From positions 1 through 11,801 of the forward strand of contig CAWHCQ010000024.1 in NCBI GenBank assembly GCA_963827755.1: a stretch of 11,801 bases of DNA, read 5' to 3'. Under the pieces are notes generated by a model that was given only the letters and a program-made list of their open reading frames with translations, ran no database searches and was not told the DNA's origin. This stretch comes from an uncultured Gammaproteobacteria bacterium (GTDB lineage Bacteria > Pseudomonadota > Gammaproteobacteria > UBA9214). Positions 1-11,542 of the stretch are shown here, in pieces. The position numbers and the translations under genes are program-made. The number at the start of each line of letters is the position of its first letter. The first letter of the stretch is position 1.

Positions 1-310
1 AGTAGAAACCGTTCTCGATGGCCGGACCGATGGTGACCTGCGTACCCGGATAGAGCTCCTGCACGGCCTGCGCCATCACATGCGCCGCGTCGTGACGCAT
101 CAGCTCAAGTGCATCCTCGTCCTTGCCGGTGATGATCGCCAGCGCGGCATCCTGCTCGATGAGGTATGAGGTATCGACCAGCTCGCCATCGACCCTGCCG
201 GCCAGTGCGGCCCTGGCAAGGCCGGGGCCGATATCGGCGGCGACATCATAAACGCTAACGGCTTGATTAAATTCACGGCGACTGCCGTCGGGAAGGGTTA
301 CTGTCGGCAT
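1..310 (-). CDS. thrS: Threonyl-tRNA synthetase, N-terminal part (runs off the window edge)
   Basis: Manual translation from ATG at 310 (minus): [46 protein letters not shown]...[33 protein letters not shown]. This is the TGS domain plus the HxxxH editing-domain motif of ThrRS. A GGAG Shine-Dalgarno lies upstream. Not in the supplied ORF track because the gene is partial. Confidence 0.97.
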
Positions 311-325
311 TACTTCGCTCCAGTG

Positions 326-346
326 GTGACCGATACGAGGGGCCAC
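326..346 (-). promoter_or_regulatory. Putative thrS translational operator hairpin mimicking the tRNA-Thr anticodon arm
   Basis: Minus strand GTGGCC-CCTCGTATC-GGTCAC forms a 6-bp stem (one G-U pair) whose loop contains CU-CGU-A, a Thr anticodon, directly 5' of the thrS SD. Confidence 0.7.
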
Positions 347-354
347 ATGATGTA

Positions 355-386
355 TAAAAAAGAAAGCATCGGTCTGCCGATGCTTT
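355..386 (-). terminator. Rho-independent terminator downstream of tRNA-Val
   Basis: Perfect 10-bp stem AAAGCATCGG/CCGATGCTTT (363-372 and 377-386) with a 4-nt loop, followed on the minus strand by CTTTTTT. Confidence 0.8.
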
Positions 387-396
387 GTATTGAAGT

Positions 397-473
<77 letters not shown>

Positions 474-690: not shown

Positions 691-2703
<2,013 letters not shown>

Positions 2704-4126: not shown

Positions 4127-4694
4127 ATGCTGCAATGGCTGTGGATGATTGTCGCTTTCAGCACGCCCGGCATCCTCGCTGCCGCGGAGGCTGATTCACG
4201 CCAGGCCGGAATACAAGCTCTACCCCGAAGCCCCGGACTTCACGGTCCAGCCACGCGATAAAGAACTGCAATTCCGCGATTGTTCTCGTTGCCACGAGGA
4301 AGAGGACATCGATCCTGAACCCCGCCGGCTGAGGACGCGGCATGTGCGCGAGATCGATCATGGCGGCAACAGGTTCTGGTGCCTGACCTGCCATGCCGGC
4401 GACAACATCGATTATCTGCGCACATCGAATAACGAGAAAATTGAATTCGGGCAGTCTTACCTCATCTGCGGGTCCTGCCACGCCGATCGCCAGAAGGACT
4501 GGTATTTCGGTGCCCATGGCAAGCGGGTGAGCGGCTGGCAGGATGAACGGGTCATCCTCGCCTGTACCCACTGCCATGACCCCCACAAACCGGCCGTCAC
4601 TCCACGGGCACCCAAGGCACGTCCACCGGTTCGCGTCGGGCTGGAAAGGCAGGAGCATCATCCCCCCGCGGCAACGAGGACGTGGGACCGTTAA
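4127..4694 (+). CDS. Periplasmic tetraheme c-type cytochrome, apparently frameshifted after the signal peptide
   Basis: Four CxxCH motifs (CSRCH, CLTCH, CGSCH, CTHCH) lie in the 4149-4694 frame. A signal-peptide-like segment MLQWLWMIVAFSTPGILAAAEADS starts at ATG 4127 (SD AGGGG 4114-4118) in a different frame that stops at 4259-4261. Confidence 0.8.
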
Positions 4695-4719
4695 CCGGCA
4701 CGCAAGCGGAGCATGCACC

Positions 4720-5658
4720 ATGGCAGGCAAACAAGACACCAAAAACAAACCTGAAACGATTGACCATTACCGCCGGGCGTTCCTCAAGCGACTTGGAGTC
4801 ACTACGGCTGCGACTGTCGGCGCCACTTCTGCCCATGGCGCATGGGGCGGCAAGACGCTGGGCGATACCTTTGCCGATTTTTTCCAGCAACACTATCAGC
4901 GGATGACGCCGGAGGAACTGCAGGAGACGCTGGAGAGGATCGAACGCAAGGCGAAACGGCAATATGGAACAGCGATCAGCTGTACCGACACGCCTCCCCT
5001 GGAGGGTGTGATTTTCGGTTACGCCATCAATATTTCGAAGTGCAAGGGCTATCGTGACTGTGTCGAGGCCTGCGCAGTTGAAAATAATCTGGGACCTGAT
5101 ATTCGCTACATCCATGTCCTGGAAATGGATGAAGGCAGTACCAACCTGGAGCTGGCTGATCGCTATTACGAACATGAAACAGTTCCCGTGGAGGGAAAAT
5201 ACTATATGCCTGTACAGTGCATGCAGTGCGACGACCCGCCCTGCGTCAAGGCATGCCCGGTTGAGGCAACCTGGATGGAATCCGATGGCATCGTCGTGGT
5301 TGACTACGACTGGTGTATTGGATGTCGTTACTGCATGTCGGCCTGTCCCTATTCGGCGCGCTTTTTCAACTGGACCCGGCCTGATATTCCTGCCGACAGA
5401 ATCAACCCGAATACCAACTATCTCGGCAACCGGCCGCGACCGGTCGGTGTCGTGGAGAAGTGCCACTTCTGTACCCAGCGCACCCGCAAGGGGCGACAGC
5501 CGGCCTGCCAGGAGGCCTGTCCGACGGGTGCGCGCGTCTTCGGTAATTTACTCGATCCGAACAGCGAGATCCGCTATGTGCTCGAGCACAAGGCAGTTTT
5601 CCGCTTGAAGGAGGATCTGGGCACGGAACCCAAGTTCTGGTACTACGCTGACCGCTGA
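4720..5658 (+). CDS. Tat-exported 4Fe-4S multicluster protein (NrfC/DsrO/QrcC/PsrB family)
   Basis: ATG 4720 with GGAG SD at 4708-4711. Twin-arginine motif YRRAFLKR. Four ferredoxin Cys groups: CKGYRDCVEAC, CMQCDDPPCVKACP, CIGCRYCMSACP and CHFC...CQEACP. Family-typical C-terminus LGTEPKFWY. 312 aa. Confidence 0.92.
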   Translation: MAGKQDTKNKPETIDHYRRAFLKRLGVTTAATVGATSAHGAWGGKTLGDTFADFFQQHYQRMTPEELQETLERIERKAKRQYGTAISCTDTPPLEGVIFGYAINISKCKGYRDCVEACAVENNLGPDIRYIHVLEMDEGSTNLELADRYYEHETVPVEGKYYMPVQCMQCDDPPCVKACPVEATWMESDGIVVVDYDWCIGCRYCMSACPYSARFFNWTRPDIPADRINPNTNYLGNRPRPVGVVEKCHFCTQRTRKGRQPACQEACPTGARVFGNLLDPNSEIRYVLEHKAVFRLKEDLGTEPKFWYYADR

Positions 5659-5668
5659 GGGATAGTCC

Positions 5669-6941
5669 ATGGCCTTGCTACTGTTTTTTCGCGACGTCTT
5701 CAGGGAGTTATTCCGGGGTTCATTGCATTTACTGGGCATGGATCGTGTTCCTGTGGGCAATCATTGCCCTGGGCGGCTGGAAATATATCGGCCAGCTCAA
5801 TAACGGCCTTGTCGTCACCAATATGAGCAACCAGGTCTCCTGGGGCTTTTATATATCGAATTTCACCTTTCTGGTCGGGGTGGCCGCGGCGGCGGTCATG
5901 CTGGTGATTCCCGCCTATATCTTCGACCGCAAGGACATCCGCGATGTCGTCCTGCTGGGTGACACCATGGCCGTGACGGCGGTGTTCATGGCAATGCTGT
6001 TCGTTATTGTCGACATTGGCCGGCCCGACCGCCTCTGGCACATGATCCCGCTGATCGGCAGCTTCAATTTTCCCGCTTCGCTGCTGGCCTGGGATGTCGT
6101 CGTACTGAGCGGTTACCTGCTGCTCAACCTGGGTATCTCCTTCTACCTTCTGTTCAGCCACTACCAGGGCCATGAGGCAAAGCTGAAGGCATACCTGCCC
6201 TTTATCATGCTCGCCATCTTCTGGGCCATATCGATCCACACCGTCACGGCCTTTCTGTATTCGGCGAATACGGGCCGGCCCTTCTGGCACAATGCGCTGC
6301 TGGCGCCGCGCTTCATCGCCTCGGCATTCTGTTCCGGTCCGGCGATTGCCATCCTCATCCTGCAAATTGTACGCAAGCTCGCCGGCTATCCGGTGCGGCA
6401 GAGCGCAATCGACACCCTGCGCGTCACCATGACCGTGTCGCTGCAGATTACGCTGTTTTTTGTGGTCGCCGAGCTGTTTACAGACTTCTACTCCGAAGGC
6501 GCACATTCCGCCTCGGCTCACTACCTGTTCTTCGGCCTGCACGGGGCAGCCAAGCTGACACCATGGATCTGGACCGCACTGGCACTGCTCGTGATTGCCG
6601 TGACTATCCTGATGATCCATAACCTGCGGCGCAATCCGCTCTTGTTCAATATTGCCTGCGTACTGACTGTGGTCGGCGTATGGATCGAAAAAGGCATGGG
6701 GCTGGTGATCCCCGGTTACATCCCGACGCCCCTTGGTGAAATATTCGAATACCTTCCGAATTCGACCGAGGTGATGATCAGCCTGGGAATCCTCGCCATC
6801 GGCCTGCTGACATTTACCCTGTTAGCCAAGGCGGGCATGGCCGTTGAGCGGGGTCAGGTAAGCCTGCGCGACGACATCGAGGAAGAACTGGCGGGCCTGA
6901 CCAGCGAGGAGGAAAGTAAACCCGTGCACACCACCGGGTGA
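5669..6941 (+). CDS. NrfD/PsrC/DsrP-family quinone-interacting membrane protein, apparently frameshifted near codon 20
   Basis: Multi-TM protein with family motifs GLVVTNMSNQVSWGFYISNFTFLVGVAAAA, DIGRPDRLWH, SLLAWD, SIHTVTAFL and GVWIEKG. The likely true start is ATG 5669 (SD GAGGG) in another frame; see findings. Confidence 0.9.
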
Positions 6942-6980: not shown

Positions 6981-7745
6981 TCAGGGCTTCTTGATACCCT
7001 TTGCAGCTTTCAGATCAGTACCGCGCAGATTCGCCTTGCGAATGTCCGTGCCGTGCATGTCAGCCTTGCTCACATTTGCCTTGGTCAAACGCGAATTGCG
7101 CAGGTTCGCCCCGCTCAGATTGGCGCCGCTCAGGTTCACCTTGCGCAAATCGGCACTGTGAAGATTGGCCTTGCGCAAATCGGCGCCGTGAAGACTGGCC
7201 CTGCGCATCTTTGCCTTGCGCAAGTCGGTTTTGCGCAAATCCGCCTTGTCTAATTGCGCCCCGCACAGATCCGCCCTTTTCAGACCCGCGCCGACAAGCC
7301 GGGCTTTGGTAAGGTTTGCATCGCTCAGGTCCGCGTCATCGAGATAGGCACCGCTGAGTACCGCTGCGGAAAGGTTCGCCGTCTCCAGAACCGCTTTGCG
7401 GAAGTCCGTTGAGCGAAGGTCTGCCCTGGTCAACACGGCATCGGTGAGATCCGCGCCACGTACATTCGCCTCGCGCAGATCTGCGTCCGAGAGATCGGCG
7501 CCGCGAAGATTCGCATCCCTGAGATCGGCATTCCTGAGGCTTGCGCCGCGCAGGTCCGCACCCTCAAGATCCATGCTGCCGAGGTCCATCCCGTCCAGCT
7601 CGGCATGGCAAAGCTCCGGTATCACGCCCGGATGGTTTTTCCGCCATTCATGCCAGACGCCGCTGCCCTGTTCAAGAACACTGATATGTTCCTGATTGGC
7701 CGTTGCAATATTTTCCCCGGAGATGTCCGGCTGTTCAGTAAGCAT
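6981..7745 (-). CDS. Pentapeptide repeat-containing protein
   Basis: About 200 aa of tandem A(D/N)Lxx repeats after an ANQEH...QG...WHEWRKNHP N-terminal cap. A GGGAG SD precedes ATG 7745. Confidence 0.93.
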   Translation of the reverse strand: MLTEQPDISGENIATANQEHISVLEQGSGVWHEWRKNHPGVIPELCHAELDGMDLGSMDLEGADLRGASLRNADLRDANLRGADLSDADLREANVRGADLTDAVLTRADLRSTDFRKAVLETANLSAAVLSGAYLDDADLSDANLTKARLVGAGLKRADLCGAQLDKADLRKTDLRKAKMRRASLHGADLRKANLHSADLRKVNLSGANLSGANLRNSRLTKANVSKADMHGTDIRKANLRGTDLKAAKGIKKP

Positions 7746-7887
7746 ATTTCTCCCATCCCGATTCCATCATATTCAAGCGGCCCGTCCTGGCAAAACCTGC
7801 GAGAAGGCCGGTATATTCAACCGGGTAGATTGTTATCTTACGCCCGGCCTCACCTGGTTAACATACCAGGGACTTTGCAAGCAAATT

Positions 7888-7901
7888 GCATGTTAACATG
7901 C
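7888..7901. promoter_or_regulatory. Perfect 14-bp palindrome, candidate transcription factor site in a divergent intergenic region
   Basis: GCATGTTAACATGC is its own reverse complement and lies between the divergent pentapeptide and START-domain genes. Confidence 0.35.
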
Positions 7902-8064
7902 GCTTTCTTCCATGTATAAAGGGAAAAACAGGTGGTACAAAATGCCCGGGGTCAGCGAGGCCCGATTTCGTCGCTTGATAAAGGCCTTTACCCTGTATAT
8001 TGCGACCAGTGCAGGCAACAGCACCTGTACCGCAAATATTATTAACCCCTGACGAACGTGATCC

Positions 8065-8499
8065 GTGCACTATACCGATTCCAGGCAGCTACCTTATCCA
8101 TGCCGACAGGTGTTCGATGTGGTCGCCGATATCGAGCGCTACCCCGAGTTTCTACCCGGCTGGACACAAGCGCGGATACTGCGGAGGAATGACAACTGCC
8201 TGTATGCCGAGCAGCAGCTGCAGACGGGACCTGCCGTGTTTCACTTTCACTCCACGGCACGGCTGCAACCCTGCAGCGGTATTCACATAAGTGCAAATGA
8301 TGGTCCCTTCCGCGAACTGGATATCGACTGGCGCTTTACCGAATCGGACGAATACCACTGCACGGTGACGCTGGATCTCGTGCTGGCCATGAGACCCGGA
8401 CTGATCAACAGTGCCTTGAAGATGATGCTGGAAACCGGCAGCAGCCAGCTGCTGCCGTTGTTCGAGCGCCGCGCCCGAATGCTGTATTCACAAACCTGA
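8065..8499 (+). CDS. Coq10/RatA(PasT)-family START/SRPBCC domain protein
   Basis: 144 aa with LPYPCRQVFDVVADIERYPEFLPGW, GPFRELDIDWRF and C-terminal FERRARMLY, all hallmarks of Coq10/RatA. GTG start with a weak SD. Confidence 0.88.
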   Translation: MHYTDSRQLPYPCRQVFDVVADIERYPEFLPGWTQARILRRNDNCLYAEQQLQTGPAVFHFHSTARLQPCSGIHISANDGPFRELDIDWRFTESDEYHCTVTLDLVLAMRPGLINSALKMMLETGSSQLLPLFERRARMLYSQT

Positions 8500-8657
8500 C
8501 AGGCGAATTGTCAGTTACTGCAGGTTCCTGCAGAAAAAATGTGTTTTTTTTCCGGGCGGATTGCAATAGGATAAAGCCACTCTGCCATTCGCAGCCGAAT
8601 GATCTGACTCAGCACTGCGCAGGGTTAATCCACTGTCATTACTACCCGGGGGAAACT

Positions 8658-9221
8658 ATGCAATCACAGGAAATTACCGAAGAGATGATCTTCCAATGCT
8701 TCGCGGCGGCTCAACAGTCCGAGCAATCCGATAAAACCGCGGAATCATTCGTTGACGTGGAAGAGTATGAGAACCAGATCATGTACCCTGAATTTGCCCG
8801 CTGGGCAAAACAGGCCGGTTACCCACAGCTGGCCACGCTGTTCCGCAAGGTAGCCGGTGAGGAAAAACTGCATGCCGTGTGGCTACGAGCCCTCTATGAA
8901 GATATAGGTGTACCGCAACGTGGTGAAGATACCCGGCGCGCAATCGACGCACTCAACACCATTCGTGCCAACTGCGATGAACTGATCGCGATGAATCCGG
9001 ACGGCGTGGTCGAAAAAGCACTGAGTGTCGCTATTCGGGTGGAAGAGCGCGAATACATGGACATCTATCCACGTTTCCGTGACCAGGCACTGGCCGATGG
9101 AAATACCAGGGCGGCAGAGGTCTACCAGAGAGTCATTGATTCCGAGCAGGAGCATGCGCAGTGGTTTACTGCTGCGTTAAGTGATTTCCGCTCGGGCGCG
9201 ATGGTGCCGGCATCCGCCTGA
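8658..9221 (+). CDS. Ferritin-like diiron protein of the rubrerythrin group, symerythrin-like, with no rubredoxin domain
   Basis: ATG 8658 follows a G-rich SD; 187 aa. Two homologous halves, VEEYENQIMYPEFA...EEKLH and VEEREYMDIYPRFR...SEQEH, each ExxE-x30-ExxH. No CxxC rubredoxin motifs. Confidence 0.85.
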   Translation: MQSQEITEEMIFQCFAAAQQSEQSDKTAESFVDVEEYENQIMYPEFARWAKQAGYPQLATLFRKVAGEEKLHAVWLRALYEDIGVPQRGEDTRRAIDALNTIRANCDELIAMNPDGVVEKALSVAIRVEEREYMDIYPRFRDQALADGNTRAAEVYQRVIDSEQEHAQWFTAALSDFRSGAMVPASA

Positions 9222-9240
9222 ATAGCTAGTTCATTTTCGT

Positions 9241-10104
9241 TTGCATAATTTCGCAAACGCGCAACAACAAGCCGGGTGGCGGCAGGCACTTAACCCCCCC
9301 ATCTACCTGGTGTCGGTGCTGCCCGGCCTCGGGGTGTTGTTAATCGCGGGAGATACTCCGCTTTGGCTTGCGGGCCTGGTGCCTGCTACGCTTGCCGTGG
9401 TCCTGCTGCAGCATGCGATCAATCTCCTGAACGACGTCAGTGACTGGCGCCTGGGTGCGGACACCGAAAAGTTCGACTCCTGGGTCAGGGCACATGGCGA
9501 AGACACCCGCCTTGCATCATTGCACGGGCTGGTCAGTGCACTGGCCGGAACATTACTGGGCACAGGTTTGCTGGCCTGGTCCGGCAGACTCTGGATACTG
9601 CTGATCGCTGTGCCCATGGTGGTGCTCGGCTATCTCTACAATGCCGGACCCCGGCCGCTGTCGTACACCTTTCTGGGGGAATGGGTCACCGGCCTGTGCT
9701 ATGGCCCCGGCGTATTCGGCTGCCTGTGGCTGCTGGCGGGTCTGCAGATACAGCCGGCGACGGGTCTGGGAGCACTGGCCTTCGCTGCACTGGCGATGGC
9801 GCTGCTGCTGTCTCATCAACCGCCCCAGATCGAAACCGATCGCGCTGCGGGCAAACACTCCTTTGCCGTGCGCTATGGTGCACTACGTACCTACCAGGCC
9901 GCGCGGTGGCTTGCAGTCCTGTTTCTTGTCAGTACGGGTGTCGGCATCGGTTTCGGTGAAAATACTGCATTGACTGTCACTGTCTTTGCAATGACCGGCC
10001 TGGCCAGCGTCGTCTTTTTCTGGAGGTCGCAGCCGAATCCCGGGCATATCCTGTTACCTTCGGCGGGTGTCATCGTCGCAAGCCTGCTAGCAAGCATGAT
10101 GTGA
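9241..10104 (+). CDS. UbiA-superfamily prenyltransferase, MenA-like
   Basis: Multi-TM 287 aa. First Asp-rich motif NLLNDVSDWRLGAD, GYLYNAGPRPLSYTFLGE, and second motif QIETDRAAGKHSFAVRYG. TTG start 19 nt after the upstream stop, with a weak SD. Confidence 0.87.
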   Translation: MHNFANAQQQAGWRQALNPPIYLVSVLPGLGVLLIAGDTPLWLAGLVPATLAVVLLQHAINLLNDVSDWRLGADTEKFDSWVRAHGEDTRLASLHGLVSALAGTLLGTGLLAWSGRLWILLIAVPMVVLGYLYNAGPRPLSYTFLGEWVTGLCYGPGVFGCLWLLAGLQIQPATGLGALAFAALAMALLLSHQPPQIETDRAAGKHSFAVRYGALRTYQAARWLAVLFLVSTGVGIGFGENTALTVTVFAMTGLASVVFFWRSQPNPGHILLPSAGVIVASLLASMM

Positions 10105-10215
10105 TGGATTTTGCCCGGTCTCCTCACATGGTTGAGTTAATCTTCAAATCGAGATTATGATAAAATTACGCAGGTAACGGGCGTTCCCCGGTTACTGTCA
10201 TCAGGGAGTAAAATC

Positions 10216-10449
10216 GTGAAAACACTTGCTCAAGTTTTGTTCTGGTTCGGTATTGTCTCCATCCCCCTTTCCTGGATCGCATGGTTCATTGCCCCGGAAA
10301 TAGGGAGGGAAGTCATGGCAGGAATCTCCGACCCCGCTCTTCGTGCTGTGATGGAGGAGGCACATCGCGAGCGCTGGGGCATTTACGTTGGCCACTGGCC
10401 ACCGACGATGCTCATCCTCAGCTATATCCTGGACAAGAAAGCGGGTTGA
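10216..10449 (+). CDS. Small membrane protein of unknown function (77 aa)
   Basis: GGGAG SD before GTG. Two hydrophobic segments and a conserved-looking ERWGIYVGHWPPTMLIL motif. A strong hairpin follows the stop. Confidence 0.75.
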   Translation: MKTLAQVLFWFGIVSIPLSWIAWFIAPEIGREVMAGISDPALRAVMEEAHRERWGIYVGHWPPTMLILSYILDKKAG

Positions 10450-10455
10450 CGATTG

Positions 10456-10479
10456 CTTCGCGGGCAATTGCCCGCGAAG
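10456..10479. terminator. Perfect 24-bp palindrome/hairpin just after the small-protein stop (possible terminator or 3' stabiliser)
   Basis: CTTCGCGGGCAATTGCCCGCGAAG is self-complementary and starts 6 nt after the TGA. It has no U-tract. Confidence 0.45.
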
Positions 10480-10834
10480 ACTGCAAAACCACTGCGGCAG
10501 GCCGCCTGTCATGTCGCTTGCGGGTATCGCCAGGCCGGCAAAATCTGTATGCAGGGATAAACACCCTGCGTGGCAGTTTTTTATCTTTTCTGTTCCATTG
10601 GTTTATACCCTGCCCTGTTGGTATTTCCTTCTCCAGTGCGGTAACCCGGGATGTTCCCGTCATCCTCCCGGGGAAATACTGACGCTCTCGGCACGGCCTG
10701 ACTTACACCTCGAACCGGCAGCATCTGCTGCCAAAAACAGCCGGTACATCTCATAATGCAAATACATTTGGCAGCCCGTACAACAACGACTGCTATTTAC
10801 ACAATAGCCACACACATCCACCACGGAAGGCGGG

Positions 10835-11383
10835 ATGCGCTATCAGAACAGGCAAACAGGCGGCTTCACCCTGCTGGAATTACTGGTCACCCTGACTGTT
10901 GCCATAACGCTGACCCTCGGCGCTGCCAGCAGCCTCAGCTGGCTCCTCCAGGAAACCCGCATGGTCGCAGACATCAACCGCTTTGTCAGCGCATTGCAGC
11001 TTGCCCGCAACGAGTCGGTCACGCATGCGCGCAAAATCGTACTCTGCCCGAGCGCGGACGGCGAAAATTGCGGCAACAGCAGCGAGTGGAACAGCGGCTG
11101 GATACTGTTCCAGAGTGACGACAGGGAATACGATGCAAATGAACGGCTGATCCGGCGCGGCGCTGCCCTGCAGTCCGGCATCAGGCTGAATGCCAGCAAC
11201 CATCGCAAGCGGATCGTCTACCAGCAGAATGGCAGCAGCGGCGGGAGCAACAGCTCGTTCACCTTCTGTGACAGCCGGAAAAAAGCAAAACCCAGGACCA
11301 TCTGCCTCTCCAACACCGGTCGCCCGCGCCTTAGCCGGAGGCGCTGCAACGGCAAGCCGATCGACTGTTCATCCATGATATAG
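10835..11383 (+). CDS. fimT: FimT/GspH-family type IV minor pilin
   Basis: Prepilin cleavage site G|FTLLELL with E5, followed by LQLARNESV, IVLCPS, WNSGWILF, SFTFCD and a basic C-terminal GRPR. Confidence 0.9.
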   Translation: MRYQNRQTGGFTLLELLVTLTVAITLTLGAASSLSWLLQETRMVADINRFVSALQLARNESVTHARKIVLCPSADGENCGNSSEWNSGWILFQSDDREYDANERLIRRGAALQSGIRLNASNHRKRIVYQQNGSSGGSNSSFTFCDSRKKAKPRTICLSNTGRPRLSRRRCNGKPIDCSSMI

Positions 11384-11466: not shown

Positions 11467-11542
11467 TCCCCGGTAGCTCAGTTGGTAGAGCGGGTGACTG
11501 TTAATCACTAGGTCGGCGGTTCGAGCCCGTCCCGGGGAGCCA
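11467..11542 (+). tRNA. tRNA-Asn(GTT)
   Basis: TCCCCGG acceptor stem pairs with CCGGGGA. D-arm GCTC/GAGC, anticodon loop CTGTTAA, T-loop TTCGAGC, encoded CCA; 76 nt. Confidence 0.98.

Follow-up and report, generated by a model that had tools for sequence, protein, structure and literature searches.

Symerythrin, the product of the plastid gene rbrA of Cyanophora paradoxa, has been characterised in a single crystallographic study system and its physiological role is unsettled; it is cited both as a model for the origin of the ferritin-like superfamily from a duplicated two-helix unit and because it makes for itself a rare carbon-carbon bond between Val and Phe. Here we describe a symerythrin-type diiron protein and the UbiA-family prenyltransferase gene that follows it, both encoded in an 11,801-nucleotide window (positions 1 to 11,801 of contig CAWHCQ010000024.1, forward strand) from an uncultured Gammaproteobacteria bacterium of the GTDB lineage UBA9214 (Table 1). 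The protein has in common with C. paradoxa symerythrin a length of about 180 amino acids, the lack of a rubredoxin domain, a double ExxE...YP...ExxH motif supplying eight ligands, an N-terminal arm bearing a Phe and a Val before the Glu of helix C, and in its modelled form it can be superposed on symerythrin over 177/179 residues. The two differ in their hosts, which are early-branching cyanobacteria and glaucophyte plastids for symerythrin and beta- and gammaproteobacteria for the family described here, and among the loci compared the linkage to a UbiA-family gene was found only in the proteobacterial subfamily. Rubrerythrin, nigerythrin, sulerythrin and the erythrins share the diiron four-helix bundle and the ExxE...ExxH of the second half, whereas ordinary rubrerythrins have a single Glu in helix A, mostly a Gly before the helix-C Glu (26/39), no N-terminal arm and, in many cases, a rubredoxin domain.

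A sequence-only reading of this stretch had reported ExxE...YP...ExxH in both halves of the protein, and the motifs were found again in the translation as E35/E38/M42-Y43-P44/E69/H72 and E129/E132/I136-Y137-P138/E163/H166, their Glu and His residues being, by alignment, the eight putative metal ligands. When aligned with one another, the two halves proved to be homologous (33% identity over 51 amino acids, E = 2e-7). The best sequence matches in the PDB were the three symerythrin entries (3QHB, 3QHC and 3SID; E = 6.7e-23 over residues 15-176), followed by sulerythrin at 2.5e-9, fourteen orders of magnitude weaker. A BLASTP comparison with C. paradoxa symerythrin (P0292, 180 amino acids) gave 34% identity over 163 amino acids (E = 1e-27) and paired F15 with F17 and V128 with V127, supporting the earlier claim that these residues lie at the offsets of the symerythrin cross-link. 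The ligand numbers that the same reading had given also fitted the real sequence, E35/E38/E69/H72 falling on E37/E40/E71/H74 and E129/E132/E163/H166 on E128/E131/E162/H165. The cross-linked residues of symerythrin are reportedly Phe17 and Val127. PMC9314684 refers to a di-metal ferritin-like protein with a Val-Phe cross-link.

Only three Pfam families scored above cut-off for the diiron protein, Rubrerythrin (PF02915, 1.6e-17), Ferritin (8.1e-6, above the cut-off of 24.5) and DUF892, and the family search of its 187 amino acids gave no match to the rubredoxin family. The NCBIfam rubrerythrin equivalog scored 60.7 bits (cut-off 200), placing the protein outside the canonical rubrerythrins.

From an alignment of 47 sequences, AlphaFold2 produced a model with a predicted local distance difference test score (pLDDT) of 86.6 and a predicted template modelling score (pTM) of 0.85, with weaker values (64-77) for the first 30 residues. 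The modelled helices (24-52, 56-77, 90-112, 114-146 and 150-179) describe a single four-helix diiron domain without a rubredoxin domain. A comparison of the predicted structure with that of C. paradoxa symerythrin had been proposed as a check, and Foldseek ranked symerythrin first (3qhb_A; template modelling (TM) scores of 0.84/0.88, root-mean-square deviation of 2.5 Å, 175 columns, E = 4e-9), with nigerythrin as the runner-up (TM 0.61). With VIA-align, symerythrin gave Z = 25.0 over 177 residues, model residues 1..181 lying on residues 4..180 of the chain, whereas all non-symerythrin chains had Z values of 16.9 or less and aligned only from model residue 17-21 onward; ferritins and bacterioferritins shared the common fold at Z = 14-15. 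Because only symerythrin matched model residues 1-20, the F15-bearing N-terminal arm is a symerythrin-specific element, and it is predicted to be placed as in symerythrin.

Relatives of the diiron protein formed at least 458 protein clusters at E <= 1e-3 in a collection clustered at 90%, and the best 120 of them were 74-93% identical to it. Named hosts among these 120 were Chromatiaceae, Sedimenticolaceae, Porticoccus, Thiobacillaceae, Methylococcus and unclassified Gammaproteobacteria, while the database labels of the relatives read only "ferritin family protein" or "rubrerythrin". The gammaproteobacterial host suggested by the sequence-only reading was borne out by the protein's own 90% cluster, whose members are named as Gammaproteobacteria metagenome-assembled genomes (MAGs). 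A relative was encoded in 126 GTDB species genomes, the best 80 of which were all beta- or gammaproteobacterial. F15, V128 and all eight ligands were invariant in 124/124 aligned sequences which, together with the PDB match at 6.7e-23, indicates a resemblance to symerythrin far beyond chance. Conservation of at least 98% was seen at 90/187 positions among 122 family members, a sample biased to close relatives, and the family-specific invariant residues included C14, C106, W49, W75 and R131. True symerythrins were far fewer, with 23 clusters from Gloeobacter, Cyanaurora, Anthocerotibacter, Gloeomargarita and glaucophyte plastids, in agreement with the description of rbrA as a glaucophyte-specific plastid gene in PMC6330054. 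A third symerythrin-type clade (P0136 and P0301-P0310; 11 clusters of about 205 amino acids) was also observed, its named members being Thermoplasmatota and Halobacteriales MAGs; P0136 keeps both the F and the V.

A careful maximum-likelihood tree (IQ-TREE, 61 rows and 168 columns, unrooted) was inferred from 12 of the approximately 122 family sequences, P0136, nine cyanobacterial or glaucophyte symerythrins and, as ordinary rows, 39 of 92 representative homologues. The protein had been expected not to cluster with ordinary rubrerythrins, and the tree agreed: the 22 symerythrin-type rows were united with support of 100/99 and separated from the 39 ordinary rows by a branch of 1.20 substitutions per site. 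Within them, the family of the diiron protein (12 rows) was supported at 100/93, the symerythrin clade at 100/98 and the union of P0136 with symerythrin at 100/95; a quick tree was concordant. The 22-row group is a clade provided that the tree is rooted within the 39 ordinary rows. Column 15 held F in 22/22 symerythrin-type rows and in 0/39 ordinary ones (a gap in 26), and column 128 held V in 22/22 and 0/39, respectively (G in 26). Ordinary rubrerythrins had been said to carry ExxE...ExxH once, and the motif occurred twice in only 6/92 representatives of 130-270 amino acids, three of the six being symerythrin-type. The other three (P0244, P0252 and P0254), candidates by the double-motif pattern match, were rejected since they sit among ordinary rubrerythrins in the tree. 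Repeat proteins such as P0123 and P0125, whose high scores come from repetition, were set aside as relatives and excluded from the tree. These long proteins (P0123, P0125, P0129, P0131-P0134, P0145 and P0146; 650-2143 amino acids) contain 4-9 tandem rubrerythrin-like stretches, and many of them begin with a hydrophobic N-terminus resembling a signal peptide.

It is therefore nearly certain that the window encodes a protein of symerythrin type, that is, a rubredoxin-less four-helix diiron protein that has eight ligands, halves homologous to one another and an N-terminal arm predicted to put a Phe beside the Val that precedes the helix-C ligand. Judged by sequence, at 34% identity it belongs to a sister subfamily and is not symerythrin proper. 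The description of a symerythrin-like protein in a non-cyanobacterial genome thus held as regards the lineage, but the protein, far from being a rare outlier, lies in the largest branch of that lineage. The symerythrin architecture, including the Phe and the Val, is kept in three lineages (early-branching cyanobacteria with glaucophyte plastids, archaeal MAGs, and beta- and gammaproteobacteria), and the proteobacterial branch is by far the largest.

The distribution of the UbiA-family partner gene was compared with that of the diiron gene in 80 GTDB loci, to which all counts over 80 refer. The partner lay directly downstream and on the same strand in 68/80 loci (one, L077, with only a partial match, and two cut by contig ends), with a median intergenic gap of 7 nucleotides (65 loci). 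In the unlinked genomes the partner was present elsewhere in 10/10 of those checked, scoring at least 385 bits with a family-specific profile; the check covered 10 of the 12, leaving out L028 and L089, which are on short contigs. No other neighbour was conserved in the 80 loci, the next commonest cluster among real genes occurring in 16/80. Two copies of the diiron gene, about 27 kb apart, were observed on one betaproteobacterial MAG contig (CAWAJU010000012.1, loci L063 and L077), and the UbiA-family match adjoining the second copy was only partial, at 34% identity.

Nearer relatives of the source genome showed the same arrangement. The diiron gene was present in 9/24 genomes of the genus, with the partner adjoining it downstream in 9/9, and the partner occurred in the same nine genomes plus G009 (75% complete), in which a contig end truncates its copy. 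Of 400 genomes drawn evenly from the class, five had the diiron gene and six the partner, and the partner was downstream in 3/3 further carriers of the class-wide sample. The sixth partner genome, G086, is complete and bears a diiron remnant of the last ~45 codons directly upstream of an intact partner (L104, C7 ~1501-1640, minus strand); at this locus the module is either decaying or rearranged. Pairwise identities of the diiron protein and the partner, aligned for 24 of the 65 loci having both genes, were strongly correlated (r = 0.87; Mantel test, 0 of 2000). In the beta- and gammaproteobacterial subfamily the diiron gene and its MenA-like partner are thus inherited as a two-gene module, which is rare (about 1% of the sampled class genomes), patchy and accessory. 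The link to a prenyltransferase is new here; a literature search of article texts turned up no paper on either the gene pair or symerythrin-type proteins of proteobacteria.

The partner matched Pfam UbiA at 2e-21 (76.9 bits against a cut-off of 34.2) and scored below all cut-offs for the MenA equivalogs (TIGR02235, menA_cyano-plnt, 91.8 vs 225; TIGR00751, 48.6 vs 102.15). Its identity to E. coli MenA was 28% and the first motif, NDxxDxxxGxD, is present in both, whereas the second Asp-rich motif is QIETD (QxxxD) in the partner and DINSD (DxxxD) in E. coli MenA. The QxxxD form was kept in at least 95% of 66 partner sequences; the first motif and many other UbiA-family positions were invariant. 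In its model (pLDDT 91.7) the predicted fold was closest to those of AfUbiA, ApUbiA, UBIAD1 and DGGGP synthase (TM 0.57-0.68). The source genome (91.8% complete) gave no MqnA match and no MenB above cut-off when searched for menaquinone head-group genes, and it contains a separate UbiA-family gene (238.9 bits), a true Coq7 and an ordinary rubrerythrin (contig C4, 102.8 bits). As the head-group genes were not found and Coq7 and another UbiA-family gene are already present, the MenA-like partner probably serves neither menaquinone nor standard ubiquinone synthesis. A second UbiA-family gene of the source genome (C17:101756-102488, plus strand), distinct from the one scoring 238.9 bits, was matched in two pieces with one internal TGA, which may represent a frameshift, an assembly error or a broken gene.

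On the most likely reading, one that we hold tentatively, the protein would be a diiron oxygenase acting, together with the prenyltransferase, on a prenylated aromatic lipid. The cytoplasmic diiron site would activate O2, an activity inferred for this scaffold because a self-inflicted Val-Phe cross-link has been reported for symerythrin. The protein would then oxidise, and most likely hydroxylate, the aromatic head group prenylated by its partner, before or after prenylation, and the pair could constitute a short pathway to a prenylated quinol or quinone-like lipid, analogous to the action of Coq7 after UbiA. The Phe/Val pair might line a pocket for the substrate or O2, forming the cross-link only as a side reaction when substrate is missing. 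A quinone-like product would also suit the quinone-linked genes that recur near the pair, those for a RatA/Coq10-like SRPBCC protein (6/80 loci), NqrA (9/80) and a PhsA-like molybdopterin oxidoreductase (7/80), and the DsrJOP-like genes of the window, none of them conserved. The likeness to Coq7 after UbiA/Coq2, a ferritin-like diiron protein combined with a UbiA-family prenyltransferase, is offered as a proposed functional analogy only, and the diiron protein has no specific sequence relation to Coq7 (Pfam COQ7, E = 0.039, below cut-off). Coq7 and AOX are described as ferritin-like diiron proteins acting on prenylated quinols in PMC5714133.

Several observations weigh against an oxygenase acting with the prenyltransferase. 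V34, the symmetry mate of V128, is likewise invariant (22/22), so the conservation of V128 may be structural and is not by itself proof of selection for the cross-link. As QxxxD replaces DxxxD in the second motif, the prenyltransferase activity of the partner is not assured. The linkage is broken in 12/80 loci, and the mean pairwise identity was 72% for the diiron protein and 50% for the partner (24 pairs), a difference that could reflect other interactions. No UbiA-family neighbour was found at cyanobacterial symerythrin loci in three loci of at least 6.5 kb, only two of which include downstream flank, so the linkage is perhaps uninformative about symerythrin itself. In addition, the only functional label found in print for symerythrin, in PMC4396506, is that of a peroxidase.

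That label also speaks for the main rival, which we regard as unlikely but worth weighing: a rubrerythrin-type peroxidase or oxidative-stress protein that reduces H2O2 (or O2) with a cellular reductant, its co-inheritance with the prenyltransferase arising because it protects the membrane lipid or quinol made there, or for some other indirect reason. Such a role would suit the Pfam Rubrerythrin match, a ligand set that equals that of rubrerythrin plus one Glu, and the origin of the carriers from redox-gradient sediments. Strict co-occurrence with one particular prenyltransferase, however, is not expected of a stress enzyme, the conserved module has neither a rubredoxin domain nor a dedicated reductase gene, and the source genome already has its ordinary rubrerythrin. 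It is improbable that the pair forms instead a two-subunit quinol oxidase or peroxidase, an analogue of AOX split in two, in which the UbiA fold would no longer transfer prenyl groups and would serve as the membrane anchor and quinol site feeding electrons to the soluble diiron protein. AOX is itself a ferritin-like quinol oxidase (PMC5714133). The retention of QxxxD for DxxxD would fit this arrangement, as would the quinone-reactive complexes that recur in the neighbourhood, with genes for NqrA in nine, NqrC in six and a PhsA-like molybdopterin oxidoreductase in seven of the 80 loci, none of them conserved. The invariant NDxxDxxxGxD and other UbiA-family positions fit a working active site instead, and we know of no precedent for a UbiA fold acting as a redox anchor, which also counts against it. 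Least probable of all is a part in iron handling, as a ferroxidase or mini-ferritin or as an erythrin-like module resembling the N-terminal domain of MbfA, an iron exporter. The Pfam Ferritin match (8.1e-6), a weak NCBIfam MbfA match (23.1 bits) and the ferritin and bacterioferritin fold similarity point in this direction, but symerythrin is a far closer match to the protein than any ferritin is, the partner is not of a transporter family and, to our knowledge, saturated sites with eight ligands are not typical of ferroxidase centres.

An oxygenase working with the prenyltransferase could be taken further, to a possible but rather doubtful proposal in which the module is an undescribed two-gene pathway that makes or remodels a prenylated aromatic (quinone-like) lipid, the symmetric eight-ligand site being a true oxygenase and the algal Val-Phe cross-link its substrate-free side reaction. 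Its hosts would, with the same doubt, be sulfur-oxidising, methanotrophic and hydrocarbon-degrading beta- and gammaproteobacteria. Such a pathway, if real, would give a testable function to symerythrin, an orphan for 15 years, whereas a peroxidase would make the finding an ordinary, if neat, family extension. Together, the large proteobacterial branch and the prenyltransferase linkage supply an orphan fold with a hypothesis open to test, that of an oxygenase in the synthesis of prenyl lipids, and the carriers include cultured hosts, such as Porticoccus litoralis DSM 25064 (locus L017) and Methylococcus sp. EFPC2 (P0098).

Features of the window are listed in Table 1. The start chosen for the diiron gene is consistent with the 187-amino-acid length of its homologues. 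A scan of positions 7700-10900 for promoters and terminators gave results at chance level (3 promoter-like sites vs 1.8 expected; 5 terminator-like sites vs 2.8 expected), and no foreign-island signal was seen in the base composition of the window (GC 0.52-0.64). Three contigs from RNA libraries of two studies span positions 8590-8840, 8649-8967 and 9215-9465, a weak hint given that DNA carry-over is possible; none of the three bridges the junction between the diiron and prenyltransferase genes with 31 nucleotides on each side.

Table 1. Features annotated in the 11,801-nucleotide window, in order of position.
Feature	Position	Strand	Remarks
tRNA-Val(GAC)	397-473	-	
DsrJOP-like trio	4149-6941	+	Multihaem cytochrome c, TAT-type 4Fe-4S protein, NrfD-type membrane protein
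Pentapeptide-repeat protein, 254 amino acids	6981-7745	-	Pfam 4.2e-58; NCBIfam HetL-like 176.7 bits, below cut-off 260
SRPBCC/START-type lipid-binding protein, RatA/Coq10-like	8065..8499	+	158 nucleotides upstream of the diiron gene; Pfam Polyketide_cyc 8.2e-25
Ribosome-binding-like site GGGGGA	8648..8653	+	4 nucleotides 5' of the ATG at 8658; read from sequence
Symerythrin-type diiron four-helix protein	8658..9221 (stop included)	+	187 amino acids, stop-free open reading frame
F15 codon	8700..8702	+	Aligns with symerythrin F17
V128 codon	9039..9041	+	Aligns with symerythrin V127; immediately before ligand E129
MenA-like UbiA-family membrane prenyltransferase (predicted)	9241..10104	+	287 amino acids, TTG start; 19 nucleotides after the diiron stop
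Small predicted membrane protein, 77 amino acids	10216..10449	+	Downstream of the prenyltransferase; no family match
GspH/FimT-type minor pseudopilin	10835-11383	+	N-terminal methylation motif
tRNA-Asn(GTT)	11467-11542	+	

The genes flanking the module were far less constant. The SRPBCC protein scored 64.3 bits with the NCBIfam RatA family, below the cut-off of 258, and had a homologue near the pair in only 6/80 loci, suggesting a possible accessory outside the conserved core. The 77-amino-acid membrane protein was conserved only in close relatives, with tblastn matches in 5/80 loci and in three genus-level loci. In the DsrJOP-like trio, DsrO scored 190.6 bits (cut-off 200) and DsrP 390 bits (cut-off 350); no DsrMK adjoins the trio, and an aminotransferase gene lies upstream. 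In several loci from Chromatiaceae and Sedimenticolaceae (L020, L028, L032 and L071), the same NrfD and FeS genes were found directly upstream of the diiron gene. At the start of the window, an open reading frame at positions 2-436 (minus strand) crosses the tRNA-Val region and continues into a threonyl-tRNA-synthetase-like gene, in the part for its N-terminal TGS domain.

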